A DNA stretch of 64,000 nt from a virus (Duplodnaviria > Caudoviricetes): IMG/VR virus record IMGVR_UViG_2843291059_000004, positions 70,479 through 134,478 of that record; one strand, 5' to 3'. The notes under the pieces were generated by a model, which had not been told where the DNA came from, did no database searches, and saw nothing but the letters and a program-made list of their open reading frames with translations. Shown here one piece after another: positions 15,584 to 59,081 of this stretch. Position 1 is the first letter of the stretch, and the number at the start of each line of letters is the position of its first letter. Position numbers and translations under genes: made by a program.

Positions 15584-15679
15584 TTGAGAGAAAAAACTTG
15601 AATACGATACGTGAAATTTAAGGCTATCGTCTTTTGGCGGTAGCTCTTTTATTTTGCGCGAAGAGAAAGGAAATGAATT

Positions 15680-18281: not shown

Positions 18282-18309
18282 GGCGGAGACCGCAAAGTCT
18301 CCGCTTTTA
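18282..18309 (+). terminator. intrinsic terminator after the capsid gene
   Basis: GGCGGAGAC-CGCAAA-GTCTCCGCT followed by TTT. Confidence 0.75.
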
Positions 18310-22647: not shown

Positions 22648-23030
22648 TGGCAAATCTGAATTGGTGCCGTACTTGCGGAAAAGAATATCCGGTATGCCCG
22701 CATTGCGAGCAGGATGCGCGTCTTAACCCTTGGCGAATGATTTGTGACACTGAGCCACACTTTCTTGTGTGGACTGCTGTAAACCAGTATCGCCAGGGAA
22801 TTATTTCAAAAGAGACTGCAAAGGCAGACTTGACTACTCTTTTGACACGCAAGTACAAGAATATTACGGAGTCCGAGGTGGAAAATTTCATCCCGGCTGT
22901 TCGTGACATTTTCCATGAAATCATAGATGAGCCTGCAAAGGCAGAGAATGAGTCATCTGGTGATGTAAAAGATGAAACGCCCGTGAAGCCGGTAGTTAAG
23001 AAAACATCAAATCGTAAGGGGCGGGCATAA
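22647..23030 (+). CDS. zinc-binding hypothetical protein
   Basis: CRTCGKEYPVCPHC; coupled to the tail tube gene. Confidence 0.65.
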   Translation: MANLNWCRTCGKEYPVCPHCEQDARLNPWRMICDTEPHFLVWTAVNQYRQGIISKETAKADLTTLLTRKYKNITESEVENFIPAVRDIFHEIIDEPAKAENESSGDVKDETPVKPVVKKTSNRKGRA

Positions 23031-23058
23031 CCGCCCCTTTATTTTTCGTGGTGATTTT

Positions 23059-24077: not shown

Positions 24078-25067
24078 ATGGCTACAAGAAGTAAACCGCT
24101 GAAGTTATGGGATGCTGAGAAGTTCAAGAACGTGAACCCAGTGTCTTTGAAATACTGGGATAGATATGAGACTGATATGGGCATCCGTGATCTCAGCCCG
24201 TCTACTGTTTACAATTATGAATCGGATTTCAAGCAGTGGATGATTTATGTTTTGGACAATCAGGGTAATGCCCCTGTAACGGAACTTGAAGAAGAAGATA
24301 TTGAGGAATTTCTGTTCTATTGTAAGAAGCACGGAAACAACTCTGCTCGCATGAAACGGCGCATGAGTACGATTTCTGCGCTGTACCGGTATCTTCGCAA
24401 AAAGAAAATCATCAAAGAAAACCCGATGGAGTTTATTGACCGTCCAACCAAGGATGTGGCTGTTGTGAAGCAGACATATCTTACGCCGGATGAGGTCAAG
24501 TTGATGCGAGAGAAGCTGAATGCGTTGGTTGAATCTGCAACCACAGTTCACATGAAAGATAATGCGATGACGCTGCGGTTATACGCCCTGTTCTCGTTGT
24601 CTACGATGGCTCGTGTCAACGCCGTGCGGAATACGCTCTGGAAGTCTATCGACTATGAGAATCGTATGGTGCATGACGTTCTGGAGAAGGAAGGAAAAAT
24701 TGTTGATTTGATGTTCAGCAAGGAAGTTTCTGAGCTTTTAAAAGCGCTGAAGGAATACCGCACTGAGCATGATATTGAGGATGGCGGCTATGTGTTTGTT
24801 GGTACAAAAATCAATGGAGCTTGGATGCCGATTACTTCAAGCACTGCTGGCGACTGGTGTAAGAAGATTGGTGAGATGATCGATGAGCCTACGCTGCACC
24901 CGCATGACTTCCGGCATAGTGGTGCTACCCTGCTGAAGAATGCTGGTATGAGTCTGGAGGACGTCTCTTCCCTGCTCAATCATGCCGGTACAGATGTGAC
25001 CAATAAGTATTACATCAAGAAGGATACGACAAAAATTCAGTCTGCAAAGGATCGGTTTGAGATTTGA
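24078..25067 (+). CDS. tyrosine recombinase (XerC/D-like; YomM-like position)
   Basis: N-terminal SAM-like domain, MAR (R), EKEG (K), HDFRH, LNH, KYY catalytic residues. Confidence 0.9.
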   Translation: MATRSKPLKLWDAEKFKNVNPVSLKYWDRYETDMGIRDLSPSTVYNYESDFKQWMIYVLDNQGNAPVTELEEEDIEEFLFYCKKHGNNSARMKRRMSTISALYRYLRKKKIIKENPMEFIDRPTKDVAVVKQTYLTPDEVKLMREKLNALVESATTVHMKDNAMTLRLYALFSLSTMARVNAVRNTLWKSIDYENRMVHDVLEKEGKIVDLMFSKEVSELLKALKEYRTEHDIEDGGYVFVGTKINGAWMPITSSTAGDWCKKIGEMIDEPTLHPHDFRHSGATLLKNAGMSLEDVSSLLNHAGTDVTNKYYIKKDTTKIQSAKDRFEI

Positions 25068-25611: not shown

Positions 25612-25741
25612 AAGCCATCTTTTATGAGAATTTATTTGGAATAAAATTCAATGAGAGGAGGGCTGGCTTTAAGGAGCTGGCCGCTTCTCTTTTTTGTTTT
25701 GAAAGGAATGTTGAAAATGGAAAAGAGAGGTGACCAACGGT

Positions 25742-28147
25742 ATGGCGGATAACACAAACACCGTAAGTAGTGCTGATACTTCCTCTGTAACGGCCATAAA
25801 GGTCAAGGTCGTTCTTGATACGAGTAAAGCAGAACTCGATAAGCAATTCGAGTCCGTCAAAGAAAAATATAAAAATAGTCCGATTAAGCTGGCCTTTGGG
25901 TTGAATCAGAATGAGACCGCAAAGAACATCAATACCGCTTTGCGTAGTATGATTTCAAGCGGAAAAATCATCACCCCGAAGGTAACGCTTGATGTCAAGA
26001 TTGACCAGAGCAAAGTAACCGCACAGTTAAAGAAAGCTATGGCTTCTGCGGCCAAGCAGACGGTTAAGGTCAACACTGGGAGCGTAAAAAATAGCGCTAA
26101 AGCAAATTCGTCAGATGATGAATTTCAAAAACTTTATCAGCTTGAACAGAAACGAGCAAAACTTCTGGTCGATTCAGCCGCATTAACTGCAAATGGTAAG
26201 AAAGAATCAGAACTTAAAGCTGTAAATGATGAGCTGACTAAAACAAATACTCAGATGAAAGAACTATATAAGAATATAAAAAATGTTCTTTCTGAAAAAC
26301 AAAAATTACAGCTAACAAACATGGATTCCGATGCGCAATTCAAGGCAAGCAGGAAAACATTGAATGGCACAGATAATGCAACTCAAGAGCTAAAAAAACA
26401 GCAAAAAGCAACCGAAGATGACTTAAAACGCACCCTAAAGCAGCAAGAATCTATTTATGAAAATCGTAGAAAGCAAATTCAGGCTCTTGAGAATTATGCC
26501 AAGAATAACTCCAATTATAAAAATTCCAATATTCAAACTTATTTATATGGTGAAGACGGCACTGGTAATACATCTGGCAAAATAAAAGAGCTTCGAGAAC
26601 AGTTATCTCTTATTGAAAATACAGATCCGAGCAAGGCTGTTAAAGACTTTGATAAAAATTGTAAAGCACTTGATGGAACGCTCAATTCTACGAGTCAACA
26701 TCTGAAAGAGCTTGGGTTTGATTTTAGAGATTTAAAGCAAGCCAATGTTGACATGACAAAATTCAAAAGTGTCTACGAACGCGCAACAAAGTTAGAAAAC
26801 TCGATTTCAAATAAAAGCAAATATTCTTTCTTGATTGATAGCATAAATGGCATAAAATCGGCAGCATCTGGTTGTGAAGGCGATGTGACCGAACTCAGCG
26901 CAAGACTATCAAGCCTTGAGGTCGAAGCCAACAGATGTGGTGCGACAACTGAAACTTTAAGTCAAAAGCTGTCTCGTCTATTTAAGGAACACTTCCAGAC
27001 TGCCGTTGCAATGTATGGCGTTGCTATGGTTAAGCAGGGTCTGCGAGAGGTTTATAATAATGTCGTAGAGATAGACACATCTATGACTAACTTAAAAAAA
27101 GTCACAAATGAAACTGAATCGGCATACTCAAGCTTTTTGTCGTCTGCTTCAAGTCAGGCGCGTGAGCTTGGCGCTTCTATCTCGGATGTTATTGATAGTA
27201 CAGCAGAATGGTCTCGTCTAGGCTATACACTGGACGAATCACAAGAGCTTGCAAAGTGGTCCACTGTCCTAAGTAACATTGGTGATGGAATTGATAGTGC
27301 ATCTGACGCAGCTTCTTATCTAGTCTCTATTCTAAAGGGATTTAGAATGGAAGCTGACGAAGTAGAACACGTCGTCAATGTTCTTAACTCGGTGGGTAAC
27401 AACGAACCCATCTCCGAAAGTGGTATTGCGGAGGCACTCGTAAGATCGGCAAGTGCATTATCGGCAGCCGGGAACTCGTTTGAAGAGTCCGTTTCGTTGA
27501 TTAGTGCAGCCAACTCTGTACTTCAGGACCCGGATACCGTAGGCACAACTTTGAAAACAATTTCAATGTATCTGCGAGCCAGTAAGACAGACGCGGAGGC
27601 ATTTGGTGTTTCAGTTGATGACATGGCAGATTCTGTTTCGGAACTTCGAAGCGAGTTGAAGTCTCTGACTGGCGTTGACATTATGAAGGATTCCGCCGGT
27701 ACAGAATTTAAGAGTACATATCAGATCCTAAAAGAGATTTCTGCCGTATGGGATAAACTTACTGATGTTAGTAAAGCTAACGTCACAGAGATGCTTGGTG
27801 GCAAAAGAAACTCGAATGCGGTACTTTCCGTGATCGAGCAATTCTCCATTGCTGAAAAATCAATGGAGGATGCCGCTAACAGTTCTAATTCGGCAATGAC
27901 CGAACAAGAGCGTATGATGGACTCAATTGAGGGTCGTTTAAAGCGGCTTAACGCCAGCTTTGAGAAATTCTCAAACGACGTTCTAAGTAGTGATCTAGTC
28001 AAGTTCTTTGTGACTCTTGCTACGAAGATTGTTGACGCAGCAGACGGGATGGTTAATCTTGCAGGTTCTATTCCGGCCATTACAGCTGCCATCTCTGGCG
28101 TGTTGTCTGTAATGCAGATGAGCGGAAAGCTCAAGAATGGTGCGGGT
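25742..28147 (+). CDS. tail tape measure protein, exon 1 (802 aa, TP901-type core)
   Basis: GAGGTG RBS; EIDTSMTNLKKVT, VGTTLKTISM tape-measure motifs; ends KNGAG at GGT| 5' splice site. Confidence 0.9.
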
Positions 28148-28640
28148 AAAGTTAATATGCCCTCTTATATTTGTTGTGTATAAAAAATATAGGATGCGGC
28201 ACCATGTAAAAATAAAATAGCCCCTAGAGTGCTGGGAAACCCTAAGAGCCATATCGCCTATATTTATATAATGTAGGAATCGAAAGATAGAAACAAGGAT
28301 ATGGATGCTATATGCTGAGATAAAAGCTCGGTTTTATCGTATTGTTAAAATATGGTAATAATTGAGTGCTAAGTAGTATTTACAATGGGCGGTCAGCAGC
28401 CGATCCACTCCCCTATTATATAATGTAGGAGAGCGGAAGGTTCATCGACTAAAAAGGGTCAGTGAGCAACCACTGGAAGGATAGTCAGTTCTGGACGAAA
28501 GTTCAGAAGTCCACCTCAGACGTAACCAGACGACTTAAAGAAGTAGGTGGAATGAGGAGACACGCTGTTCTCTGGCGCGATACAAGTAAGAGAAAAATGA
28601 TTGAATAATTGAACAAAAAGAAAAAGTACACTGTTGTTCG

Positions 28641-28669
28641 TTGACAGCGTACTCTAAAAAGTGTATAAT
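28641..28669 (+). promoter_or_regulatory. consensus sigma-A promoter for the putative antitoxin sRNA
   Basis: TTGACA-17-TATAAT. Confidence 0.85.
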
Positions 28670-28674
28670 AAAAA

Positions 28675-28790
28675 CAGCCAAGGACTCCTATAGACGAAGC
28701 CCTCGGTGAACAGTTTAAAATGCAATGTAAATGCTTGGACACATTCACATCACAGAAAGAGCCACCTACTGCTAATAGGCGGCTCTTTTA
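28675..28790 (+). ncRNA. putative type I antitoxin sRNA (~115 nt)
   Basis: Lies between a consensus promoter and the terminator 28756-28789; contains CATTCACATCAC, complementary to the toxin start region. Confidence 0.6.
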
Positions 28791-28913
28791 CTTATCACGG
28801 CTTTCGCTATGATGATGTAACATCTTGAAAATCTCAAGAAGCGTTTTGACAAAGCCAGCAAAGCCGAAAATCAGCATTGCGACATAGTAGACCGTAGTGA
28901 TCTCAATAGTCAT
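28788..28913 (-). CDS. 41-aa single-TM peptide, putative type I toxin (MTIEITTVYYVAMLIFGFAGFVKTLLEIFKMLHHHSESRDK)
   Basis: GAGGAGTG RBS, hydrophobic N-half with charged tail, long structured 5' leader, own promoter. Confidence 0.7.
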   Translation of the reverse strand: MTIEITTVYYVAMLIFGFAGFVKTLLEIFKMLHHHSESRDK

Positions 28914-29060
28914 TACACATCACTCCTCTCGGTAGACTCACCGAAAGGGAGTAAAAGATATGGCATTCTCCTTCTCGCCTTTCGGCTGAATGGGAGGACG
29001 TTCGCCTATACACGTCTATGAAAGGAAGAAAGTAAACGCGGAATCCTTGACTGCCAGATT

Positions 29061-29090
29061 ATTATACACCCGTCTGTCATATCCTGTCAA
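29061..29090 (-). promoter_or_regulatory. sigma-A promoter for the toxin mRNA
   Basis: TTGACA-18-TATAAT on the minus strand. Confidence 0.75.
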
Positions 29091-29200
29091 TATCACTATA
29101 ATGTAATTTATAATACATAAAAAAGAGATTGCTTTCCTGAAGTTTTCTGGCTATAATATAAGTACAATCGTGTATCCAAAATATATGGAGGTATTTTATT

Positions 29201-29533
29201 ATGGCTAGACCCAAAGGAAGCAAGAACAAAGCAAAGGTTCTTGATGGCGTTGATTATGCAGCGCAGATCGCTGAGAAGAATGCCGCAGCGGAATCTATCG
29301 CTGAAGAAATCGCATCTCTCGGCTCGAATATTGCTGCACTGAATGCTGAGAAAAAAGCAAAAGAAGCAGAGCTGAAAAAACTCAATAAAGAGATTGCAAA
29401 ACTCGAAAAGAAAAAGGCTGATGCCGATGAAAAGATTGCGGCAGAGTTGAATCGCAAAAAGGCAGAAGACATTGTTGCCAACGCACTGGCCAATGGCATG
29501 ACTGCTGAAGATATCGCTGAACTTTTGAAGTAA
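29201..29533 (+). CDS. AT-hook-like/coiled-coil protein (intron cargo)
   Basis: MARPKGSKNK N-terminus; promoter TTGCTT-17-TATAAT 29129-29157; terminator 29550-29587. Confidence 0.8.
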   Translation: MARPKGSKNKAKVLDGVDYAAQIAEKNAAAESIAEEIASLGSNIAALNAEKKAKEAELKKLNKEIAKLEKKKADADEKIAAELNRKKAEDIVANALANGMTAEDIAELLK

Positions 29534-29592
29534 GGTATCATCATAAAACAAAGCCCGACTTCCCTACTACTGGGAGGCCGGGCTTTTGCTAT

Positions 29593-29793
29593 TTAGTCTT
29601 CGAATTTGATAACGCCGCACTGTTTAAGTATGGCTATTATAATTTTAATTGTAGCGCCCATACTTAAACAAATCATATTGGCTATCTGCTCAGTTTGAGA
29701 TTTTCCCTCGAGTCCTCGCATTTTTTGCATTAAAAGATCGATACCGTTGTTCGTTTCAGTCTCTAAGATTTCATTAAATTCTTTATGCGTCAT
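29593..29793 (-). CDS. 66-aa hypothetical protein (intron cargo), paralogue of 31060..31266
   Basis: AAGGAGGT RBS; promoter TTGACA-18-TATAAT 29880-29851. Confidence 0.7.
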   Translation of the reverse strand: MTHKEFNEILETETNNGIDLLMQKMRGLEGKSQTEQIANMICLSMGATIKIIIAILKQCGVIKFED

Positions 29794-29975
29794 AACTGGC
29801 GACCTCCTTTCAGTTGGAATTTTAGCATAGTACATAGTGATTGCTTATCTATTATAGGATATATCGTAATATCTTGTCAATCTCTGTTTTGGATTATTGT
29901 GGAGCCCTGTGTAGCAAAGTTTAGTTGACACTATCTCTGAACCGTGATACACTCTTGTAAAAGGAGTGTTAAATC

Positions 29976-30173
29976 ATGGAAAACAATAAGAAGCATGTGC
30001 CGGATTATGAAATTTCGACTTACAGTAATCGGAAACCGACTGAATATACATATTCAGGGAATGGTAGTTCTGCAAATCCACTGGAAACATATTTGAGAAA
30101 TCATAGCGACAATCATTCAAATTATAATCAAGAAGGAGGAGCAGATGACAGAGATAATCAAACTAATAAATAA
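29976..30173 (+). CDS. 65-aa low-complexity protein (intron cargo)
   Basis: AAGGAG RBS; promoter TTGACA-17-TACACT 29925-29953. Confidence 0.6.
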   Translation: MENNKKHVPDYEISTYSNRKPTEYTYSGNGSSANPLETYLRNHSDNHSNYNQEGGADDRDNQTNK

Positions 30174-30756
30174 TGTAGAGACACTTTTCAATATCTTTGT
30201 TCCAGGTGCTATTTGCGTATGGTGTTACTCTAAGTTATCCTTGCGGAAAATGGAATACCAAGGATATCTCACTCTTAGTATTGCCATTGGTTTCGTAATT
30301 AAATACTGTGTGGATTACGCTGACCGTTTGCTAGGACGGTTTACAATTGCTGGATTTCCGATAATTGTTGTGTACGTTTTAGTTGGAATCATCGGAGCTA
30401 TCATTTTTTATAAAGGAAAGAATTCGATTTGTGTAAGACGCAATGTGTCGAAATTTCTTGGTGTTGACTCTGGTGACAATGTTTGGACAAGGCATCTCGA
30501 TCCAGAAGGAAACTTGCTTACACTCCATATGGATGATGACACATATATTCTTGGATTGTTTGAGAATGCAGACGATGAGTATATTACACTGACGAATTAT
30601 TGCTATGCAAAAACGCCTGCTGGAAAAGATATGGATGAGGCTGCACAAAAGCCATACACTGATGCTGTTTTATGCGTTCCAACAAAGCGAGTTAAGCAAT
30701 TTGAAATTTTGTATCCAAACCCTGAGTCCAAAACTGCAAAGTATGTTCTGCGTTAA
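30145..30756 (+). CDS. 3-TM membrane protein with a C-terminal beta domain (DUF6338-like; intron cargo)
   Basis: IFVPG, three hydrophobic helices, NVW, YILG; terminator 30774-30801. Confidence 0.65.
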   Translation: MTEIIKLINNVETLFNIFVPGAICVWCYSKLSLRKMEYQGYLTLSIAIGFVIKYCVDYADRLLGRFTIAGFPIIVVYVLVGIIGAIIFYKGKNSICVRRNVSKFLGVDSGDNVWTRHLDPEGNLLTLHMDDDTYILGLFENADDEYITLTNYCYAKTPAGKDMDEAAQKPYTDAVLCVPTKRVKQFEILYPNPESKTAKYVLR

Positions 30757-30807
30757 AACAAATACGACCACTACCCTGCTACTTTGTGTAGCAGGGCTTT
30801 TCTTTTG

Positions 30808-30897
30808 TCACCACTCATACCCACAATTCTTACACTTGAACTGTTTGCCGGGCTTTCTGCTTGCCCAGCCCCATATTGCTACATCAACCAACTTTGC
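30808..30897 (-). pseudogene. 3' remnant of the Zn-ribbon gene (AKLVDVAIWGWASRKPGKQFKCKNCGYEW*)
   Basis: Aligns with the C-terminus of 32514..32927. Confidence 0.8.
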
Positions 30898-30923
30898 ATT
30901 TTTTAATCGAGGTGAATTCGTAT

Positions 30924-31076
30924 ATGAAAATTGAAATTGAAACAAAAGAACTCACTGCCTTTCTTGACTATATCAAGGGGCAGCGAGAACCTATTGGTAA
31001 CACTCAAGTATTAGCTGAGGAAGTTGTTAAGGGACTGCCTCAAAAAATCACTTCACAACTCAATCTTCGTACTTGA
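30924..31076 (+). CDS. 50-aa hypothetical protein (MKIEIETKEL...; intron cargo)
   Basis: GAGGTG RBS. Confidence 0.6.
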   Translation: MKIEIETKELTAFLDYIKGQREPIGNTQVLAEEVVKGLPQKITSQLNLRT

Positions 31077-31266
31077 GTACACCAATTTTTTCGAGAGTAG
31101 CAACAAGAGATGCGGTGGCGTCTGTGACTGCCATATTGTACGCAGCGGCGACCATTTGCTCAACTGTTATCTTCTTGTCTTCTCTTTCCGACAGAACGTT
31201 GGCAAAATCATTCAGATTCTTCTCGATCTCGTCCTGAAGAATCTTATTAAATTCTTCTCTAGTCAT
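31060..31266 (-). CDS. 68-aa hypothetical protein (intron cargo), paralogue of 29593..29793
   Basis: AGGAGG RBS; MTREEFNKIL...GVLKYED versus MTHKEFNEIL...GVIKFED. Confidence 0.75.
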   Translation of the reverse strand: MTREEFNKILQDEIEKNLNDFANVLSEREDKKITVEQMVAAAYNMAVTDATASLVATLEKIGVLKYED

Positions 31267-31358
31267 TGTAGTCTCCTCCTTTCTTCTAGTCTTTATTTAA
31301 GTCTACCATAAAAAGACAAAATGTAAAGAGAACGGGAGGTCACATTTGACGTAGAATG

Positions 31359-31660
31359 TTAGAACTCATACCCACATGCCTTACATTTAAACTGCTTTCC
31401 AGGTTTCTTACTCGCAAATCCCCAAATTGCTACATCAACCAGTTTAGAGCCTGCACCTATTTTGTCGAGATGGGGGCATCCGCAGACGGGGCATTTTGGG
31501 GTGTAAACAGGTTTTGCTACTTCTGGAGTTTTGGTTTCAGCGCCTCTTCCCTCTCGGCTCTCACCTTAGCGTCAAAATCGTTAAAGTCTTTTTCGAGTTG
31601 GCTATCACCATCAAACGGATTTGTTACCACACGTCTTGGTTCGCCAGAGCCATAATCAGA
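31359..31660 (-). pseudogene. 5'-truncated, frameshifted copy of the Zn-ribbon gene
   Basis: ..NDFDAKVRAEREE / PVYTPKCPVCGCPHLDKIGAGSKLVDVAIWGFASKKPGKQFKCKACGYEF*; frame change near 31520. Confidence 0.8.
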
Positions 31661-31697
31661 GACACGTTAATTCACATCCTTTTCTTTGGAGGTATTT

Positions 31698-31919
31698 ATG
31701 TATTATTTTGCACATTACGAAAAAGATCAAAACTATTTTGCGTCTGATTGTAATAACTCAAAGGACGGAAGTGTTGAAGCTAAAATTTGGAACAAAGGAA
31801 CTCATTCTTGGGAGCAGAAATGTTTTTCTGCGTTCGAAGAATTCAAAGCTTTTACGGATCAACTATGTATGGCTGACGAGGGATCTCTGTCACGCGGTAA
31901 GATTCAGTATCATCTATGA
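31698..31919 (+). CDS. 73-aa hypothetical protein (intron cargo; 3' end overlaps the convergent gene)
   Basis: GGAGGT RBS, ATG 31698. Confidence 0.5.
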   Translation: MYYFAHYEKDQNYFASDCNNSKDGSVEAKIWNKGTHSWEQKCFSAFEEFKAFTDQLCMADEGSLSRGKIQYHL

Positions 31920-32496
31920 CGATTAAATCGACTTCTTCACTTACGGAGTCATATTTCTTTGCGGTCAAAGAAGTCATTTTCTTTACGAAGTCAACCATAT
32001 TAGAGAAGTCCATATTACTAATATCGTAGTTGCCTTTATGAAACTCTTCTGTGTATACGTCGTGCATTCCAGATGCCACAGCATAGTCTATCCCAATATT
32101 GGGGTGAACTATTTTACTACTTGTGTCTGTATAAAGAATGACGTTATTTCCATCTTCAATAGCCGCATCGATTAGGTAAACAATATTTTTGCTGGTTCTT
32201 GCTGATAATTCCTGTAAGAGAAAATTGAGCTCTTCTTTTACGGACATTAACATCATGTCAGAAATTTTTAAGAGGTCAAGAATTACAATATGTGTTTTCT
32301 GTTTATTATCTAATTCGCCAGCTCCGGTGAATGCAACTGCGTGACCTTGTTTGGTTAGGTAAGATTTCTGAGCAAAGTTGTCGTGCCATTCTTCCACTAT
32401 TTTATTAGTATCAGGGTCCGTTAGTGTAATTGTTGTACACACATCAGTGGATACAACAATACCGTTTTTGTTACAGACAGCTAGTGCTAGAGACAT
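31852..32496 (-). CDS. Ntn-hydrolase/proteasome-beta-like protein (intron cargo)
   Basis: MSLALAV..GIVVSTD N-terminus, K..G.AVAFTG, ASG, SVS..VD pattern. Confidence 0.55.
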   Translation of the reverse strand: MSLALAVCNKNGIVVSTDVCTTITLTDPDTNKIVEEWHDNFAQKSYLTKQGHAVAFTGAGELDNKQKTHIVILDLLKISDMMLMSVKEELNFLLQELSARTSKNIVYLIDAAIEDGNNVILYTDTSSKIVHPNIGIDYAVASGMHDVYTEEFHKGNYDISNMDFSNMVDFVKKMTSLTAKKYDSVSEEVDLIVIDDTESYRVTEIPRQPYIVDP

Positions 32497-32513
32497 TCTA
32501 ATTCACTTCCCTC

Positions 32514-32927
32514 TTACCATTCGTAACCACAGTTATCGCAATGAAACTGAACTCTAGGCTTACGCGCCAGCAGTCCCCAAACGGCGGCGTCAACTAATTT
32601 TGCCGTGGTTGATACTTTGTGAATGTTGGGGCTATGACAGGTTGGGCAGGTAGGCACATACTTCGGATGTTCTTTCTCCTCCAAATCGGCTCTATATTGA
32701 GCGTCAAAGGCATTGGCTTTATCTTGCATCTCTTTAACAAAATTCGGGTCTAATTCTGAGATATCTCTTTTGGGTCTGTTTGTAAACCTCCAATTGATTT
32801 TTTTCTGCTCGCTCATTCCGTTCCATTGAGGCAATAGAATAGTATCTCTCAAACAAAACGCGCACAACAAATCTCTTTTATGGTAATATTTGTCGCAAAA
32901 TGGGCAATACCGTACATATTCTTCCAT
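32514..32927 (-). CDS. double zinc-ribbon protein (intact copy; intron cargo)
   Basis: CPFC..CAFC and CPTC..CDNCGYEW; GAGGAG RBS. Confidence 0.8.
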   Translation of the reverse strand: MEEYVRYCPFCDKYYHKRDLLCAFCLRDTILLPQWNGMSEQKKINWRFTNRPKRDISELDPNFVKEMQDKANAFDAQYRADLEEKEHPKYVPTCPTCHSPNIHKVSTTAKLVDAAVWGLLARKPRVQFHCDNCGYEW

Positions 32928-32950
32928 GATTTCTCTTCTCCTCGAAATCG

Positions 32951-35900
32951 ATATTAACTTTCTTCACGGTAGATGCTAACATTCAAAAGTTACAAATTCA
33001 GACATTTTCTAAAATAAAAGCGTCTCTTGTTGACTTAATCGCGCAATACAAAGCATACAAAAAGGCTTTGGGCGAGACAAATCTTTCCATATCTGATTTT
33101 ATCAAATGGCTAATCTCTGGTCAAGCCCCAATTGATGCTACGAAGTTAAAGATTTTGGCTCTTCGTGGTGCTGCGTTACTTTTGAATATGGCCCTTGGTG
33201 TTGTTACTGGGCTTGTAGTTTCCTCTCTTATTGGTGCGATTACAAGCTATACACAGCGGATTGATACAGCAGCTACAAAAACGAAAGAAGCTGCTGATGC
33301 GGCCAACAACACGACTTCTTCCTTGAAGGATTTAGTCGATGCCTACAAAGAACTTGGTGACAAGTCTGGTTGGAGTACAGAAGATTTTGACCAAGCAAAG
33401 GATATCCAAGAGGAGCTTTTGGCTCTTGCAAAAGAACAAGGCACTCTTGACGAAAACAAAGCAAATCAGCTTGATCTTCAAAATGGAAAATATGAAGAAC
33501 AACTTGGTTTGCTGAAGGATATCACGGAAGAACAGCTCAAAGATTCCGAGTCGAAGTTGATGCAATCCAAGGATGCTCAAAGCAATAAGCTAGTTAAAAC
33601 AGCAAAAGATAACAATCGCTCTCATTTCTTTAGTTCTATTTCTGCAAATGCCAACCTTGGTATTATGAATGAGTTAAAGGATGCGGGGATTGATGTATTC
33701 AATAAGAGCGGTGATTTTGGCGTAAAAGACCTTAATAGTCCAGATTCTATTGCAAAGTATTATTCCGAACTTGGTAGAGCTTTAGATTATATTGTTCAAA
33801 ATACAACTGAAGCACAAAGAGCAGCCGGAGGTGCGTATCATACTGTTTATCAGTATTTAATGGATGAAGAAGCCGCACTTCATGATGATGTGGATGCTTA
33901 CAATGATTCTACCGATGCCATCAACAATAATACGAATGCTCGTAGAAAGCTTCAAGCTGTAGATTTTTGGCAGAATGACAATAATAACAGTATGGATGTT
34001 AGCTTTACTTTTGATAAAGTAAATTCTGCCGTTCAAACACTGGAAGATACAATTGATGGGTTTGATGCTAGTAAACTAAATGAACTCTTATGGGGTACAA
34101 ACGAAGGATTGTCTGATGAGCAAGCTCAAGCTCTCGCAAATCTTCGTAAGGCTCTAACCGACATGGACTTCTCCGCTGATACAAACGGCGTGAATGCGTT
34201 TATCCAAGCACTTGTTCAAGTTGGTATTGTAGCTCAGTCTTCTGCAAATGATGTTGATGCGGTAGCACAAGCTTCTCAGAAGATGGAGGATATCTCCTCT
34301 AAGATTGATGAGATTCAGACTGCTTATAAGAATGCGACCACCGCTATTGAGGAGTACAATAAATATGGCTATTTGAGTGCGGACACACTCCAAACTCTTC
34401 TTAATGAAGACTTCGAGTATCTGAGTTGTCTCGAACTCGTTGATGGTCAGCTTCAGGTGAATACCGAGAAGTATCAGGGTATGATTGCCGCTCAGTATCA
34501 GTCTGCGGCCATGGCTCTTGTTGAGAAAGCAAATGCGGAGCTTGCAAAGATTGCTCAGGGCGAAAAGAAGGATGCAGTCGAGGATGCAACCAAGGCAACA
34601 GAAGACCAAGCAACAGCTTTGACTGAACGGGTCTGTCCTGCCCTTGGCGAGTTTGCAAAAGCATCTATGACAGCCGCTGCAGCACAAGAGTTCTTGGCAA
34701 ATGGAGATGCAGCATGGTCTGTTGACCCAGAAAGGACTAAAGAGGTCTATGCTGGCCTTGCTTCTGGTTTAGATATTTTGGACGCAACTGTTGACCAAAT
34801 TATGGGCAATTCGGATAAGTTCCGTCAGCACATGAATGGTTTTGATAAGGAAACCAAGAACCGGAATAAGAATACTGCCAAATCTGTAACTGATGTAGCT
34901 TCTGCCTTCGATACCTTAAATAAGGCAATGAAGGAGTATAACCAGTATGGTTATCTGTGTGCTGACACAGCAAAGTCTTTGATTGGTCTGGATGATAAGT
35001 TCACGGCTTGCCTAACAAAGCAAGGCGATAAGCTCCAAATCAATGTAGAGCAGTTCCGTAAGTTTGTGAAAGAACAACTCAAAGAAGCGAATGCCGCAAA
35101 AGATGGCGGAAAATCAGCTGATGAGATGAATAAAATTCTGAATTATCTTGATCAGAATGTAGATACAACAACCATCTCTTTTGAGCAGCTGACTGACGCT
35201 ATCAAGGGTTACGGCACTGCGATGGATGAAGCCAAGGAAAAGACGGACGCTATAAAATCCGCATTTTCTGACTTATACAGTGTTGGCTTGAATAAGCAAG
35301 ACAACGATTTTGGGTTCTTAGATTCGGATGATATCGAGAAGAAATTCCAAGCTATCCGTAATTTATATGGTAACACAGATTTGTTTACCAATCAAGCATA
35401 TAAAGATGCTTTGAATCCAGAAACCGGTGAGATTGATTACAATAGCGATGCATTCAAGCAGATGTTTGCTGATTATCTCGCAGGGCTTGCAACAACTGCT
35501 CGTGAGACTGGTGGTGAGGCTGGAGAATATCTTGCTCAAGGTTTTGAGGACGCTGCGGCTAAGATCTCTCAGAATGTGATGAGCATTCGCGAGTACATCG
35601 ACGGTATTGGTTCTTCGATTGAACGTGCCAACAATCAGATTGATGGGTTCCAGAGCGCATTTTCTGACATCCAAGACATTGTTAAAGAGTATAATACCTA
35701 TGGTGGTCTGAGCATTGATAATTATCAGAAGCTCATGAGTCTGAGTGACGACCAAATCAAATGCTTGAAACTTGAAGGCGACCAGATCAAGTTTGATACG
35801 CAGCTTTACAAAGAACTCTTCAAATTAAAGATTCAAGCAATGATTGACGAGTATGACAAGGCTGACCAGACAAAAGCTCTTGCTCAACGACTTCGTGAAT

Positions 35901-38900
35901 TACTTGCGGCAGTTGATAAGGCTGGCGATGGATTTACCAGTGCGGCTGATAAGGCCAAGAATTTCGAAGACACCCTTTCGAATATCAAATCACTTTTATC
36001 TGACTTGATTGGTGTCTTTGAACAGTTCAATACGGACAAGTCCAATGACCTCAAGATTCAGGGCGACGCATGGCTTGACGTGATTGACAAGCGAATCGAT
36101 GCACTGAATGAACAGAATGATGCCCAGGAACGAGCCATTGAACTCTCCAAAGCTCAGGACGCACTCGAAAAAGCCAAAGCTAATAAGACTGTCCATGTTT
36201 ATCATGCCGGCGGAAGTGGCTTCGAGTGGGAGGCTGACCAGAACGCCGTTCGTGATGCACAGTCTACACTGGATGACACGATTCGAAAGAACCGCAAAGA
36301 GGACGAGATTGATCGACTGAACAAACTGAAGAAGGCCGTCCAGGAAAATAACGAGCTGATTGGCTCCAGTTTTGAGGATTATGAGAAGAAGAAGAAATAT
36401 CTCGCAGAGTTCGACAAGATGACCTACGATGATATGATTTCTTACAATGAAAATTGGAAAAACTCTATCCTCGGCAATATGAAATCCACACAGGTCGTCA
36501 CGAATGTCAACGAAATTATCACTAAAATTGAGAAGCTGATTACGACACTTGAGACTCTGAATAATGTGCTGACGTGGATTAGTACGCTTGGAAAGAGCAC
36601 AGACGGTGGCGGACTGACTGGTCTGTTTAGCAAGAATGGTCTGTTTGGCAATATCGGTAATTTCATAAGTACAGCGAAAACAAAGGGGCTCGAAACAGCA
36701 GCGAAGGAAGTAATTGGAACATTCCTAGACAATACCGGTGCGGCACTCGAAGCGAATGCAGACAATCCTATCATTAAAGCGGCAACTGGTCTATGGGATA
36801 AGTTAAAGGGAATTTTCTCTGGTAAAATTGTAGCGACAGGCGTTGAAGCTGGTGTGGACGAGACTCTGGCTACTTTGGCGAAAAAAGAAGTCGTTCAAAA
36901 AGGCGCTGGCAATCTACTCACACGGTTCGGTGGAGCTGCGGCGACAACTGGAGCATCTACAGCGGCGACAACTGGAGCAGGAACTGCCACGGTAACTACT
37001 GGTATTTCTTCTATTCCTGTCGTTGGCGCACTTATTGCGGTCGCTGTAAATAACGCTGTTCAGCAATTCGGTAAGATCAGTAAAGAAAACACCAAGATCT
37101 GGGCAGATCAAAATAGCACGACTGGTGAGAAGATCGTAAGCAGTGTTGGTAACGTGCTCTATCACCTCTCCCCTGTTGAGGGTTGGGATAAGTCGGTTCA
37201 ATATGCTAAGATGGCCGCTGAGGGCGAAGGTCTGTGGCAAAAATTAGAATATGGTGCGAAATCCCTATACTATGCGACTGGCCTTGGTACGATGCTGGAC
37301 AATATCTGGAACACCATCAAGAGTATTCTCAAAGTCTTCGGTGTGAAGTTCAAGGAAAGTGGCGATGGTGTCAGCACATCTAGTTCTGTTTCTGGCAAAA
37401 AGGGTGTTGGCTCGTGGAAGATCTGGCCGTGGAACTGGGGCAAAAAGGCAAAAGGCGATAAGAAAATCAAGAAGTCTGCTCCGTACAATGTTGATGAAGA
37501 AGGCGACGAAATTATCGTCCGTAAGCCTCAGACTGGCCGGATGACCTATCTCGAAAAGGGCGACGGTGTTATTCCTGCAAATGAGACTGAGAATCTGATG
37601 ACGATCGGTAAAAACCCGCTCAAGTGGTTGACTGAAAATGTCGGTAAGATTCTTGGCGCTTCTGCCGCGAAAGATGTCGTAGAAGGCAAGGTCGATGAAG
37701 GGGCTGTCACAAAAGCTTCTCAGGTTCTTGCAAGCTCTGTTGTGAACACTTTCTCTTCTGCATGGAATACCGTGAAGATGAGCACAGAAGACCTGATTGA
37801 CTCCATGAATGACTCGTTCCAGGGCGGGTCAACAAGTGTTACGACGGCTGCTGGCACCATTCTTAGCCGAGTCAAGACCATGTTTGGCAAGGCCAATATG
37901 GGGAAACTGTTGGGCAGCTTCAGCTCCGGTGTTTCTGGCGCTATCTCAAAGAGCGCAAAAGAGTATTCTTCTACTACGGAACTGTTGAGTGGTACAAAGA
38001 GCAAAACCATCGACACAATGAACAAGATGCGGTCTACGTTTGAAAGTACGTGGGCTTCTGTGGCAAAAGAGACTGGCGTAAGCAAAGATAAGATCACTTC
38101 GATTAGTTCTGAAATGTTCAGCAAGATGGAAGCCTTGGTGAATCAGACGTACGATGCGATCGACAGCAACGCCGGTATGAGTTCTGACCAACTGAATGAC
38201 ATCACAAAGAGTTTGTTCCAGTCGATGCAGAGCATTTACACTTCTGGTTGGAATGCCGTCTATGCTACTTCTACTGGCATGTCTCAGGAAACCGCAAATA
38301 CACTGAATTCCGCATATAAGTCCTCTTCTGATGGCTGCACCAAGGCAATGGATACCATCCGTAACACGATGGTCGGCAGCTGGGAGCAGTGCGGCGGTGG
38401 CGTTCAGAATTTGGCAAATGGTACCTACCAGACACTGAGTAAAGCATGGGCAGATTCCAGCGGAAGCGCAGAGAAGATGCTCTATGATACCCGTGCCTGC
38501 TTTGATTCTGGCTGGGGTGCTGTGGAACAGGGTGTCAGCAGTTTGGCAAATAACCCGAAAGACAAGCTTTCAACAGCTTGGGCAGAAATTACTTCTCAGA
38601 GTAATGCTACATTTGGTGCGGAAGGTACACTGAAGACCGATGCAGACAATGCTTGGAAGAATGTGGAGCCGGGCGCTACGAACTTGTCGAAGAATATGCA
38701 GTGGACCATGGATCAGGCTTACCTCGCTACAAAGCAGGGCTGCTCTGATACCGTCAATTCTGTCAATACAAACCTTAATTCGACGTCAGCAGGTTTCAGT
38801 GCGATTGCCAGCGCAATTGATGCTGTCAACAAAAAAGCATCCGATTCGGAAGAAGTTGCAAAGAATACAGGACACGCATGGTATGAATGGGTGCTGAATC

Positions 38901-39436
38901 CAGTTGGCACTTTGCTTGACACGGTTACAAAATATAACACAGAAGACAAATCAAAGAACAATTTTTTACAAAATGCTGTTCATACAGTCACACATCCGAT
39001 CAGTTCGGTTGTAGAATCAGTAAAATACCTTGGAAATGCTGCAAAGGATTTCTTTGGTGGTCTATTTGGCAAACACGCTTCCGGCTTAAAGTCTGCATCT
39101 AAGAGTCATTTCGCCAATGTTGACGAGCTTGGCCCTGAGCTTCTGGTTCGTAAGCCACAATCTGGTCGTTACACTTACCTCGAAACTGGTGATGGTGTGG
39201 TGCCTGCTGATATTACATCGAAATTGTTTGAGATGGGTGGCAACCCGAACAAGTGGTTCTCTGAACAGATGGCTAAGTATGGTTCTCAGGCGATTACTAC
39301 GAAGAGCACTGGCAACACCAGTTTCTCGACTGGTAATATTGTGATCAACAATCCTGTTGGCAACTCTGAGGATCTGGCTTCTGAAATCAAGAAGAACTTC
39401 TCGACCCGGATGGCGCAGGAATGGAATAAGCGCTAA
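32951..39436 (+). CDS. tail tape measure protein, exon 2 (2161 aa; spliced product ~2963 aa)
   Basis: Frame open from 32930; no convincing RBS at TTG 33068; helical Ala/Thr-rich with W-periodic repeats; joins as KNGAG|ILTFFTVD. Confidence 0.88.
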   Translation: MLTFFTVDANIQKLQIQTFSKIKASLVDLIAQYKAYKKALGETNLSISDFIKWLISGQAPIDATKLKILALRGAALLLNMALGVVTGLVVSSLIGAITSYTQRIDTAATKTKEAADAANNTTSSLKDLVDAYKELGDKSGWSTEDFDQAKDIQEELLALAKEQGTLDENKANQLDLQNGKYEEQLGLLKDITEEQLKDSESKLMQSKDAQSNKLVKTAKDNNRSHFFSSISANANLGIMNELKDAGIDVFNKSGDFGVKDLNSPDSIAKYYSELGRALDYIVQNTTEAQRAAGGAYHTVYQYLMDEEAALHDDVDAYNDSTDAINNNTNARRKLQAVDFWQNDNNNSMDVSFTFDKVNSAVQTLEDTIDGFDASKLNELLWGTNEGLSDEQAQALANLRKALTDMDFSADTNGVNAFIQALVQVGIVAQSSANDVDAVAQASQKMEDISSKIDEIQTAYKNATTAIEEYNKYGYLSADTLQTLLNEDFEYLSCLELVDGQLQVNTEKYQGMIAAQYQSAAMALVEKANAELAKIAQGEKKDAVEDATKATEDQATALTERVCPALGEFAKASMTAAAAQEFLANGDAAWSVDPERTKEVYAGLASGLDILDATVDQIMGNSDKFRQHMNGFDKETKNRNKNTAKSVTDVASAFDTLNKAMKEYNQYGYLCADTAKSLIGLDDKFTACLTKQGDKLQINVEQFRKFVKEQLKEANAAKDGGKSADEMNKILNYLDQNVDTTTISFEQLTDAIKGYGTAMDEAKEKTDAIKSAFSDLYSVGLNKQDNDFGFLDSDDIEKKFQAIRNLYGNTDLFTNQAYKDALNPETGEIDYNSDAFKQMFADYLAGLATTARETGGEAGEYLAQGFEDAAAKISQNVMSIREYIDGIGSSIERANNQIDGFQSAFSDIQDIVKEYNTYGGLSIDNYQKLMSLSDDQIKCLKLEGDQIKFDTQLYKELFKLKIQAMIDEYDKADQTKALAQRLRELLAAVDKAGDGFTSAADKAKNFEDTLSNIKSLLSDLIGVFEQFNTDKSNDLKIQGDAWLDVIDKRIDALNEQNDAQERAIELSKAQDALEKAKANKTVHVYHAGGSGFEWEADQNAVRDAQSTLDDTIRKNRKEDEIDRLNKLKKAVQENNELIGSSFEDYEKKKKYLAEFDKMTYDDMISYNENWKNSILGNMKSTQVVTNVNEIITKIEKLITTLETLNNVLTWISTLGKSTDGGGLTGLFSKNGLFGNIGNFISTAKTKGLETAAKEVIGTFLDNTGAALEANADNPIIKAATGLWDKLKGIFSGKIVATGVEAGVDETLATLAKKEVVQKGAGNLLTRFGGAAATTGASTAATTGAGTATVTTGISSIPVVGALIAVAVNNAVQQFGKISKENTKIWADQNSTTGEKIVSSVGNVLYHLSPVEGWDKSVQYAKMAAEGEGLWQKLEYGAKSLYYATGLGTMLDNIWNTIKSILKVFGVKFKESGDGVSTSSSVSGKKGVGSWKIWPWNWGKKAKGDKKIKKSAPYNVDEEGDEIIVRKPQTGRMTYLEKGDGVIPANETENLMTIGKNPLKWLTENVGKILGASAAKDVVEGKVDEGAVTKASQVLASSVVNTFSSAWNTVKMSTEDLIDSMNDSFQGGSTSVTTAAGTILSRVKTMFGKANMGKLLGSFSSGVSGAISKSAKEYSSTTELLSGTKSKTIDTMNKMRSTFESTWASVAKETGVSKDKITSISSEMFSKMEALVNQTYDAIDSNAGMSSDQLNDITKSLFQSMQSIYTSGWNAVYATSTGMSQETANTLNSAYKSSSDGCTKAMDTIRNTMVGSWEQCGGGVQNLANGTYQTLSKAWADSSGSAEKMLYDTRACFDSGWGAVEQGVSSLANNPKDKLSTAWAEITSQSNATFGAEGTLKTDADNAWKNVEPGATNLSKNMQWTMDQAYLATKQGCSDTVNSVNTNLNSTSAGFSAIASAIDAVNKKASDSEEVAKNTGHAWYEWVLNPVGTLLDTVTKYNTEDKSKNNFLQNAVHTVTHPISSVVESVKYLGNAAKDFFGGLFGKHASGLKSASKSHFANVDELGPELLVRKPQSGRYTYLETGDGVVPADITSKLFEMGGNPNKWFSEQMAKYGSQAITTKSTGNTSFSTGNIVINNPVGNSEDLASEIKKNFSTRMAQEWNKR

Positions 39437-39514
39437 ATCGAATATCTACACACAATGCCGATACCACTGGGATAGCCCAGCGGGTCGGCTTTTTATTTTT
39501 TCAGGAGGCAGAAC

Positions 39515-48100: not shown

Positions 48101-51100
48101 CGAAGTGCCGAATACGACTATTCAGCACATTTATAAGAATGGTCGCGCCGTGGAAGACAACTGGATCGCTACCGGCTCTCACAAAGGACAAGGTACTAGC
48201 TCTAATGCTTATGGCGAATCCGGTCGTAATATTGACATTGACTGCTCTGGCGGTTTTACCTTTGGTAACGAGAGCACTGGCAGCAAATATGCATTTACAG
48301 AAAACAGCGTTGGCGAGAAGTATTTTAACATCAAAGTCAATGTTGCCTCCTCTGAGAATGCAAATAATGCTCTGCTGGCAGATGAGTTCAACGAGTTTAA
48401 TCCGTACATTCGTCAGGCTCGCAAGGATAATCCGAAGGTGCGCGACACCATGGCATTCTATCCCTGTGTTGTGTTTATTCAGGAGACCGATACCGCTAAT
48501 GCAACTGTCTTTAAGGATGGTCAGTGGCACTTTTATGCTTGTGGCGATTTTGGTAACTCTAAGAAGAATAGTGACACGATGGGCATGGACCCGAACAACC
48601 ACAAGGAAGTCATCATTGAAATCGACAACAATACCGATGCACAGACTCGCTTCTTGAGTGGAGACTTTTCTGAGGAAACTTGGAACGGCGACCACAGTTT
48701 TGAATTCCGCTACATCAACAAGAACTGCAGTGAGCAAGAAGTTCAAGATGCGAAAAACGCATGGATTCGTGTGCAGAATTGGGTCGTGAATGCTGATGAC
48801 GAGGAGTTCAAGAAGAACTTTGAAAATTACTTTGTCAAGGATTCCACCCTGTTCCATTATTTATTTACAGAGCGCCATACCATGGTGGATAACCGTGCAA
48901 AGAACGTATTCCCGCACACGACTGACCTGATTCACTGGGATTTCTGCTTTGATTATGATAACGATACCGCTATGGGCAACGATAACGAGGGTGGTCTGAC
49001 TCTGAGCTACGGCTACGAGGACACTGACACCATCGGCACAAAGAGCGTGTTTAACGCACATGACTCGAAGCTGTGGTGTAAGGTTCGCGACCTGTTTGCG
49101 GATGACCTTGCAAAGATGTTCCTGAATCGTGAGAGTGCTCTGGCATGGAGTTCTACCCGTATCCTGAAGAAATTTGAGGATTATCAGGACGTAAAGCCTG
49201 AGAAACTGTGGATCATGGACATGCGGCGCAAGTATTTCCGTACTTATGAGGACAATGGAACGACCAGCTATCTGCCTATGATGCACGGTAACAAACGTCA
49301 TCAGCGGCGTCAATTCCAGCGCTATCAGGAAAAATACATGGCATCTAAATATACAGGTGCTACTTGTACTTCGGATGATATGACCATTCGCGGTTACACT
49401 CCGACCAACTGGACGGGCGTGAAGCCCGATGGCACTTTCCATATTATTCCTTATGCTGACACTTACGTCTCTGTGCGGTACGGCTCTAACCCTGTGAAGG
49501 TGCGTGGCAAGCGTGGCCAGACTTATGCAATCCAGTGCCCGATCGAGGCTATGAATGATACTGAGGTCTATGTCTATAACGCCTCTATCATCCAGAGTAT
49601 TGGTGACATTTCTGGCTTCTACCCTGGCTATGTTGATTTCAGCCATGGCGTAAAGCTGACCGACCTGAAGATTGGTTCTGCTGTCGAGGGTTACAAGAAT
49701 ACGAACATGACGGATTTCGCAGTTGGTAACAACACTCTGCTGGAGCATTTGAACCTGCAGAACGTGCCGAACCTGAAGAAATCTATTAGTCTGACTGGTT
49801 GTACGAATCTGGAAGAGTTCTACGCTGGTGGCTCTGGGATTACTGGTGTCGCATTCGCTAAAGGTGGTAAGATCAAGAAGGCCGAACTGCCTGCGATTGC
49901 AAGCCTGAGCGCTAAGAATCTGAATTATCTGACTGACCTAAAGATTACAGATTATAAGAACATTACCACTCTGACTGCCGAGAACTGCCCGACTATTGAC
50001 CTAGTTGGAATGCTGGCAAAGTGCACGAGTTTGAACCGTGTGCGTCTGACCGGCGTTGATTGGCAGCTGGATGATACTTCCCTGCTGGATCGTCTGCTGA
50101 AGATGACCGGCTTGGATGAAAACGGTTATAACACTGACCATTCTGTTGTTGAAGGTAGTGTCCATGTGCCCATTATGCGTGAGCGTCAGTTGGCAGAGTT
50201 TACGGCACAGTGGCCTGATTTGAATATCACTTATAACACGCTGGTTCAGCAGTTCAAGTGGACGTTTGTGAATAAAGACGGCACTGTTCTGGACATCCAG
50301 TACATTGATAAGGGTGGTAAGGCAGTTGACCCTGTTACCCGTGAAGAGAATCCGATTCCGACACCTACTGCTGAGAGCACCATCTCTACGGACTTTACTT
50401 TCAGCGGCTGGGATACTGAGTTTACGACTGTTTTCAGCAATCAGACTGTTACCGCAACTTATACCGAATCTGTGCGCAAGTACACTGTCCGCTATATGAA
50501 CCGTGGCGCTGTGCTGCAGGAAACTGTTGCCCCGTATGGTTCTATGGTGCTTTATACCGGCGACACTCCGGTCTATACCGCAGAAGAGACTGCATTCAAG
50601 TATTACCTGTTTAGCGGCTGGGATAAGGGTGGTTATGTTGTTGGCGACAAGGATATCAACGCTGTTTATGACGTGTGTGAGTATGTTTCCAACTACTTTG
50701 ACGGAAAGGAAATCGGTCAACTGCGCCCGGTTGAAATCTACGCAATGAATAAGGTTGGCGTAGAACAGACTGTTGTTGAAGCAAAGGATGAGGTTACAAT
50801 TCAGCTTGGCAATGACTTCTCTTATGACGATATCACTGAAAAGGTTTTGTTCAATGAGCCGAAGGTATTTGACGGAAAGACCTACGTTGATACAGACGTC
50901 ACCCTGTTTGATGAGGACAGAGATTTTGTGCTGGCTGTTGATTACAAGATAGACTCAGCTAATGCAAATAACACCGTTCTGATGCAGTGCTTTGAGCAGA
51001 ATGGCATGAATGGTATCAAGCTCTGGAACTCAAATGGTGTGAAGATGACATGGGGTATTGACTCTGCAAACGGCGCTTCTGCTGGTTCCCGCGATATGAT

Positions 51101-59027: not shown

Positions 59028-59081
59028 TACATAACCCGGTTGGCTGTATGCCGCCGGGCTTTTATTTTGGAGGTGCTTATT

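Follow-up and report, generated by a model that had tools for sequence, protein, structure and literature searches.

The 64,000-nt stretch of DNA analyzed here, hereafter the window (positions 70,479 to 134,478 of the IMG/VR virus record IMGVR_UViG_2843291059_000004), forms the right arm of a 134-kb gut phage record that is classed as a provirus, and its plus strand carries a long late block. Within this block, we accept that a group I intron of 4,803 nt (28148-32950), for which splicing is predicted, interrupts the tape-measure gene. The intron contains three putative sense-strand terminators, T1 to T3, and, as these hairpins lie inside the intron, a precursor spliced in cis must cross all three of them. 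Transcription through T1 to T3 by a YonO-like RNA polymerase, which is encoded at the head of the late block, is the reading that we favor.

A predicted group I intron in the tape-measure gene

Two plus-strand reading frames of the late block carry tape-measure sequence. The upstream open reading frame (ORF; 25730-28183) matched Pfam PhageMin_Tail and, in a tape-measure profile of 2,625 positions, the N-terminal third, the downstream frame is open from 32930 to 39436, and the 4.8 kb between both frames hold small genes in either orientation. A related metagenomic phage has an uninterrupted tape-measure protein of 2,383 aa (P0009), whose residues 6-746 aligned to exon 1 and whose residues 1186-2383, i.e., about the C-terminal half up to the final residue, aligned to the frame of exon 2. 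As P0009 aligned to both in the same order, the two exons represent halves of a single gene. Ligation of the predicted exons results in the in-frame junction GGT/ATA (...AATGGTGCGGGT/ATATTAACTTTCTTC...; as RNA GGU/AUAUUAAC), in a frame that is colinear with P0009, and the predicted product is a single tape-measure reading frame of 2,967 aa. The halves were also separated in some 70 related viral contigs, in which they lie 1.9-6.2 kb apart and are contiguous in none. Both halves were colinear, located on one strand and separated by 1.9-6.1 kb at all 73 loci at which both splice sites could be placed, and in all relatives the frame of exon 2 was open from ATA TTA ACT TTC onward.

The predicted 5' splice site lies within P1 (GGGUA/UGCCC), which was invariant among the relatives except for L166, where one pair is lost and one is gained. 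The loop of P1 holds an 11-nt guide, AAAGUUAAUAU (AAAGTTAATAT; 28148-28158), which is the exact reverse complement of 32951-32961 and would thereby form a P10 of 11 bp. The guide was invariant in 68 relatives, and the complementarity for P10 was kept with zero to two mismatches or wobbles. The guide in the P1 loop together with the predicted P10 is the canonical P1/P10 arrangement of group I introns. The pairing that is assigned to P1 by the Rfam model (UUAUAU/GUAUAA, with a 5' splice site after 28170) was also considered but corresponds to P2 and was rejected, as GGGU/GCCC alone gives the in-frame junction, the 11-bp P10 and the conserved start of exon 2. At the other end, all 68 distinct introns terminate with a G (G32950), preceded by varying bases, and in all 68 exon 2 begins with a P10-complementary in-frame codon run, I/V/M-L-T/S-F. 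Only a short motif is conserved at the 3' end (CTCCTC-spacer-G/ATATTAACTTT). The long-range duplex GAGGAGA/UCUCCUC, referred to as closing stem in the following, was predicted in almost every relative (-12 to -17 kcal/mol) and would close the loop that contains the cargo.

Conservation is concentrated in the 5' part of the element. The block 28083-28595 was 85-100% identical in the relatives, compared to about 50% identity in the adjoining exon, and beyond the block the relatives carry unrelated types of cargo. Alignment to the Rfam model Intron_gpI (RF00028) included P4, P6, P7 (GACUA/UAGUC), P8 and P9, with a large insertion in P5. Covariation was seen in P2 only, where the more distant L166 displayed three further compensated pairs; the remainder of the core was too conserved for covariation to show.

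Several relatives showed deviations from this pattern. In divergent relatives, the near-identical block begins about 65 nt inside exon 1 (28083-28147), and on the 3' side the shared part of exon 2 amounts to no more than about 12 nt; this pattern of the exon flanks looks like the asymmetric co-conversion tract of intron transfer. In L051 (9200-9600), and also in L003, L020 and L028, an insertion of some 400 nt without a long ORF takes the place of the P6a hairpin (28404-28437 in the window); the insertion gave no Rfam match, and the introns of these relatives are no longer detected by Rfam. A different intervening sequence occupies the homologous tape-measure site of L168 (14490-18900) and also of L169 and L170, with a P1-like pairing of 6 bp (CUGGGU/GCCCAG). 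It has no BLAST similarity to the intron core of the window and no Rfam match, and it carries the same cargo genes, with the gene for the 110-aa coiled-coil protein in first position. It possibly represents a second group I lineage with the same cargo.

Predicted terminators and cassettes inside the intron

T1 to T3 (see Table 1 for all coordinates) have the features of predicted intrinsic (Rho-independent) terminators, i.e., a G+C-rich hairpin directly followed by a U-tract and situated downstream of a transcription unit. The plus-strand unit in front of T1 is the RNA of about 110 nt starting from 28641, that in front of T2 is the 110-aa ORF and that in front of T3 the ORF 30145-30756. None of 200 dinucleotide shuffles folded as well as the native sequence at any of the three sites. 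T1 and T2 are bidirectional, as both fold on the minus strand as well and sit between convergent units. A consensus scan of the region 26000-34000 identified 11 terminator-like sites, with 5.8 +/- 2.2 expected; T3 was listed outright and T1 as a shorter inner stem of 5 bp (28769-28782).

Terminators also occurred throughout the relatives. Hairpins were present at the intron offset of T1 in many of them, and of 45 distinct downstream variants, 44 retained T2 behind the 110-aa gene, while its loop and flanks differed. For a more general survey a home-made terminator finder was used; its first version was too permissive (67 hits per strand), and all counts given here are from a stricter version, which misses a T2 that has a four-U tail. 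The stricter finder identified one to five sense terminators in 66 of 68 relatives, and the two shortest introns carry T2 with a four-U tail, spotted by eye. The presence of at least one predicted sense-strand terminator inside the intron is a near-universal feature of the family.

The cargo between the ribozyme core and the 3' splice site is organized into units with promoters of their own. Perfect matches to TTGACA-N16-18-TATAAT occurred only three times in the window (0.06 expected), all of them inside the intron, and these represent three of the five perfect matches in the whole 134-kb genome. The cargo measures 1.9 to 6.1 kb among the 68 distinct relatives, and cassettes come and go. The units, in which the three perfect promoters and T1 to T3 bracket small ORFs, correspond to moron-type cassettes, and variation among the relatives suggests that they are dispensable. 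The final 1.9 kb in front of the 3' splice site of the window contain minus-strand genes only. The zinc-ribbon gene adjoins the 3' splice site at every junction of the relatives examined, whereas the other cargo varies, and in each of the 29 distinct junction variants the terminal G is preceded by CTCCTC, the complement of the ribosome-binding site of this gene. The antisense zinc-ribbon gene is preceded by a good predicted minus-strand promoter (TTGACC-17-TAAAAT with TG; 33096-33124), which lies within exon 2.

An initial annotation of this DNA had described at least three terminator-like plus-strand hairpins with U-tracts as well as convergent sigma-A promoters within the intron. Both were recovered here, the hairpins with coordinates shifted by 1-5 nt and with folding energies of -17 to -24 kcal/mol. 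Its argument that a continuous pre-mRNA has to cross all three hairpins also holds for splicing in cis, with the hairpins placed inside a well-supported group I intron.

Similarity searches revealed little about the functions of the cargo. Neither the 110-aa coiled-coil protein nor the products of ORFs 29976-30173 and 30145-30756 had an informative family match in Pfam or PHROGs; the zinc-ribbon protein gave no family match, and a search of PDB sequences returned nothing useful. PADLOC, applied to the cargo proteins, returned coiled-coil noise only. The region 28727-28787 (+), which covers the antitoxin-like RNA and T1, has a weak resemblance to the Enterococcus antisense small RNA RefA9 in Rfam (29.3 bits, below threshold). 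No recognizable homing endonuclease is encoded in the intron of the window. A free-standing 265-aa ORF with a weak NUMOD3 and a faint GIY-YIG match in Pfam is located between tail genes in L169 (6227-7024) and L170 (6217-7014) and is absent from L168.

Table 1. Positions of the predicted features in the window.
Feature	Position	Strand	Remarks
YonO-like single-subunit RNA polymerase gene, 927 aa	637-3420	+	Head of the plus-strand late block
Other late-block terminators	4234-4271, 15615-15653, 18282-18305, 23016-23039	+	Canonical-looking
Terminator 5' of the tape-measure gene	25653-25700	+	-26 kcal/mol; 17-bp stem; U6GU4 tail; 0/200 shuffles as stable
Tape-measure exon 1	25730-28147	+	806 codons; Pfam PhageMin_Tail and phrog_4211 positions 250-949 of 2625
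P1	28144-28162	+	GGGU/GCCC; U28147-G28159 wobble at the 5' splice site; loop holds the 11-nt guide
Conserved ribozyme block (P1 to P9 and extensions)	28148-28595	+	Rfam match and conservation
P2 hairpin	28164-28193	+	A-U, G-U and G-C alternatives at one pair (17 variants)
Closing stem, 5' strand GAGGAGA	28554-28560	+	Predicted long-range duplex with the intron tail
Sigma-A-type promoter	28641-28669	+	12/12 consensus positions; would drive a short antitoxin-like RNA, ~110 nt, to T1
T1	28755-28789	+ and -	AAAGAGCCaCCUA...UAGGcGGCUCUUU then UACUU; -18.1 kcal/mol plus (z -5.3), -23.7 minus
41-aa hydrophobic toxin-like ORF	28788-28913	-	Convergent with the 28641 RNA; perfect promoter 29090-29061 (-); weak phrog_23825 match
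110-aa coiled-coil protein gene	29201-29533	+	By tblastn in 68/68 distinct relatives
T2	29550-29586	+ and -	-23.7 kcal/mol plus (z -4.6), -25.0 minus; tail UUUUGCUAUUU
80-aa ORF	29593-29880	-	Perfect promoter 29880-29851 (-); convergent on T2
Promoter TTGACA-17-TACACT with TG, and ORFs 29976-30173 and 30145-30756	29925-30756	+	Two-gene unit ending at T3
T3	30774-30796 (30805 with U-tract)	+	9-bp G+C-rich stem; -17.3 kcal/mol; z -4.4; tail CUUUUCUUUU
214-aa and 137-aa double zinc-ribbon genes	31852-32927	-	Zinc-ribbon gene 32514-32927
Closing stem, 3' strand UCUCCUC	32936-32942	+	Followed by spacer and terminal G (32950)
Tape-measure exon 2	32951-39436	+	2161 aa; first 11 nt are the P10 strand
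Terminator after the tape-measure gene	39457-39489	+	-22 kcal/mol; tail UUUUUAUUUUUU
Other late-block terminators	53312-53350, 54547-54573, 57775-57799, 59035-59058, 60788-60827	+	Canonical-looking

Proposed terminator read-through and its alternatives

Hairpins of this kind are not restricted to the intron. In the rest of the late block, the stricter finder identified about a dozen compact, mostly intergenic sense-strand terminators, some as strong as or stronger than T1 to T3, among them sites after the capsid gene and between tail genes. The terminator in front of the tape-measure gene ends about 30 nt before its start at 25730, leaving no space for a promoter between the two. As such sites punctuate the whole late block, late transcription must cross terminators with or without the intron. 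Judged by these predicted sites, read-through is a general requirement of late transcription and not a puzzle specific to the intron.

The YonO-like polymerase named in the initial annotation is encoded by the gene at the head of the block. The protein matched Pfam RdRP (PF05183; E 4.8e-14), tblastn aligned it to yonO of phage SPbeta (E 1e-14), and in BLASTP the similarity to YonO extended over about 500 aa (E 2e-22), with the metal-binding Asp triad in the form DFDAD opposite DNDGD in YonO, and DGFG opposite DGCG. A PDB sequence search with the polymerase yielded nothing useful. In SPbeta, 37 late genes depend on YonO and are apparently transcribed as one operon from a single start; the enzyme is fast, pauses little and likely lacks most domains of multisubunit polymerases, including the flap that is used in hairpin pausing and termination (PMC5467207). 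In the SPbeta yonK-yomD operon (GenBank AF020713), our stricter finder identified nine sense terminators, and for six or more of these a stem_loop is annotated at the same place. The GenBank record itself lists seven sense-strand stem_loop features in the late operon, which also contains the embedded opposite-strand genes yonI and yomL. The YonO-like enzyme is, by analogy with SPbeta, the natural candidate for crossing T1 to T3. The initial annotation had regarded the terminators as a problem of the intron. The part of this view that stands is that the precursor must cross T1 to T3; however, about a dozen equally good terminators elsewhere in the late block and nine in the SPbeta operon pose the same question, which is thus less special than had been held.

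According to the mechanism that we favor, T1 to T3 would be the ends of moron-type cassettes that have settled in the peripheral loop on the 3' side of a group I intron. As long as the phage is a prophage, the consensus promoters would be used by the sigma-A polymerase of the host, and the terminators would confine transcription to each cassette; that the host enzyme would express the cargo in the lysogen fits the provirus class of the record. After induction, the YonO-like polymerase would transcribe the plus-strand late block and would cross the hairpin terminators wholly or largely, within the intron as well as at the dozen or so other sites, so that the precursor would be made as a single RNA. 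The ribozyme core, located 5', would fold first, and upon production of the 3' end 4.3 kb later, the closing stem and the 11-bp P10 would dock the terminal G, so that the exons would be joined in cis. Read-through by the phage polymerase is favored over the other readings discussed below. For the complete chain, i.e., splicing that occurs in cis and on a transcript made by the YonO-like polymerase, we consider it about equally probable that it holds or that it fails at some step. Directly established were the features in the sequence and their conservation, as well as the colinearity of the exons with the uninterrupted homologue; from these we infer which polymerase would make which RNA, the presumed terminator insensitivity and splicing itself.

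A number of points weigh against this mechanism. The full-length match to RF00028 (28161-28507) reached 24.6 bits with an E value of 0.004, which is under the gathering score of 50, although the comparative evidence for the intron is far stronger than this score. P1 is short, with 5 pairs. No allele that lacks the intron and carries the predicted junction AAYGGTGCNGGTRTRTTWWCTTT was found in viral and metagenome contigs; all 16 matches occurred by chance in unrelated proteins. In addition, the first splicing step would have to wait, or exon 1 would have to be held, through 4.3 kb of further transcription. Other single-subunit phage polymerases, e.g., that of T7, stop at some hairpin terminators, and the evidence for the mechanism proposed here is sequence-based. 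Finally, the assays of the YonO study did not cover intrinsic terminators (PMC5467207).

The precursor might also be made by the host RNA polymerase, either by leaky termination or with the aid of a phage antitermination factor, which would leave the YonO-like enzyme without a role in its synthesis. Leaky termination could suffice, as only a few copies of the tape-measure protein are needed per virion, and the U-tracts of T1 to T3 are short or interrupted (4-5 U), with GUUACUAUUU tails in some relatives, so that termination may be partial; moreover, the terminator insensitivity of YonO-type enzymes is an assumption of this analysis. However, three serial terminators together with the strong site at 25653 and some ten others would leave the tail genes further downstream with too little host transcription, and about 1.9 kb of untranslated antisense RNA in front of the 3' splice site would expose the host polymerase to Rho. 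No sigma factor was found in the phage genome (searched for sigma-70 region 2) and no antiterminator was recognized, whereas a dedicated phage polymerase is present and placed like yonO of SPbeta. Transcription of the precursor by the host polymerase is therefore regarded as rather unlikely. We consider it still less probable, and doubtful altogether, that no splicing occurs and that the 4.8 kb are a moron island behind a decayed intron, leaving a truncated tape-measure protein of 817 aa and a 2,122-aa frame that is translated separately or not at all. The sub-threshold Rfam score and the failure to find an empty site would be in line with a decayed intron, as would an ATG or TTG as last intron codon in 20 of 68 relatives; however, this codon is not a start in the other 48 and is a stop in 7, and the plus strand upstream of exon 2 is pyrimidine-rich and has no Shine-Dalgarno sequence. 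As there is neither a conserved start codon nor a Shine-Dalgarno sequence upstream, exon 2 is not generally translatable alone. In addition, the terminal G and P10 occur in all relatives, conservation of the core far exceeds that of the exons, and exon 2 is open over 2,161 codons that match about the C-terminal half of an uninterrupted tape-measure protein.

The initial annotation had also proposed that the intron assembles in trans. Here, an RNA with exon 1 and the ribozyme would end at an internal terminator, a separate RNA with the intron tail and exon 2 would start within the cargo, and the closing stem of 7-9 bp and the 11-bp P10 would hold both RNAs together for ligation of the exons. 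The whole catalytic core indeed lies upstream of the first terminator, the closing stem and P10 would provide about 18-20 bp of conserved intermolecular pairing, and the sense terminators are conserved in the family. However, the same pairing serves splicing in cis equally well, and read-through is needed elsewhere in the late block regardless of trans-splicing. A sigma-A-type plus-strand promoter after the last terminator is lacking in 58 of 69 introns; this count is confined to that promoter type, as the consensus of YonO-type promoters is not known and no search for a phage-type promoter was made. Upstream of the 3' splice site nothing is conserved except for the ribosome-binding site of the antisense gene, the last 1.9 kb of the window's intron carry no plus-strand gene, and the halves are colinear on one strand at every locus. 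Assembly from two RNAs thus found no specific support and appears highly improbable. There is, to our knowledge, no precedent for a trans-spliced group I intron in bacteria or phages, and if true, the present one would be their first natural example.

Phage setting and relation to known systems

A megablast search of the region 27000-34000 against GenBank phages returned only a 3% match, to an unannotated fecal contig. An exact scan of species-representative genomes for the 5' junction gave a sole match, L165 (CAAHET010000214.1), a metagenome-assembled genome labeled uncultured Faecalibacterium, and thereby a weak hint as to the host; among isolated phages, the closest ones that have a similar polymerase infect Enterocloster and Clostridium. 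A tyrosine recombinase (Pfam Phage_integrase, E 3e-22) is encoded at 24078-25067 (+) of the window, in the structural block just 5' of the tape-measure gene, and a second one on the minus strand of the left arm (genome positions 48520-49158).

SPbeta shares with this phage a homologous polymerase that heads a late block of 35-55 kb, and both blocks contain sense terminators and embedded opposite-strand genes. Structural genes of the relatives also match Pfam families named after SPbeta genes (YonD_N, YonB, YomW, YomV, YomU_Tube and YomN). In SPbeta, however, the embedded units are located between genes, whereas here they are inside an intron within a gene, so that read-through would also be a precondition for splicing.

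With respect to the layout, the element resembles the IStrons CdISt1, BcISt1 and CboIStron of Firmicutes, in which a group I intron is fused to an IS605- or IS607-type element; splicing of whole elements has been shown in vivo, and in Clostridia a 5' core thereby removes kilobases of 3' cargo (PMC4227781, PMC10690162). In both, the ribozyme core lies 5' and is separated from a distant 3' splice site by kilobases of protein-coding cargo, and IStrons occur in Firmicutes including Clostridia. No IS605/IS607 transposase or TnpB was found among the cargo ORFs by Pfam and PHROGs. The element described here differs in its changing cassettes in both orientations, with their own consensus promoters and intrinsic terminators, and in occupying a single fixed site in a phage structural gene with up to 6.1 kb. 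Group I introns in tape-measure genes (TMP-IVS1/2/3) were reported in 2008 for prophages of the Bacillus cereus group (PMC2504315). They share the class of host gene, the class of intron, a site defined by P1 and P10 and the spread between prophages. The TMP-IVS introns are, however, small, only one of them has a homing endonuclease gene, and none has a multi-gene, self-transcribed cargo with terminators.

In the sunY (nrdD) intron of phage T4, an ORF reportedly lies 3' of the core, which is said to be activated by the remote 3' splice junction (Michel and colleagues, 1992). This intron shares the order of a core followed by an ORF in the 3' peripheral region and a long-range pairing that brings in the 3' splice site, but has one sense endonuclease ORF of less than 1 kb, and it is not known to contain internal terminators or antisense genes. 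In the trans-spliced group I introns of organelles, such as those in cox1 of placozoans and lycophytes, the halves pair across a broken peripheral loop and are encoded apart or on different transcripts, unlike the colinear halves at all 73 loci here.

If the favored mechanism is true, ligation of the exons of an essential tail gene hinges on a polymerase that is able to pass host-type terminators, and one DNA would be read in two ways, as insulated accessory genes by the host polymerase in the lysogen and as a long spliceable precursor by the phage polymerase after induction. The system also offers a natural test bed for whether two-barrel polymerases of the YonO type recognize intrinsic terminators, and the intron may represent a safe harbor for exchangeable accessory genes within the longest gene of the phage. 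Group I introns in prophage tape-measure genes are already known, and so is the layout with a 5' core and a remote 3' splice site. What differs here are swappable, self-transcribed cassettes in the absence of a transposase, by which splicing comes to presuppose terminator read-through.

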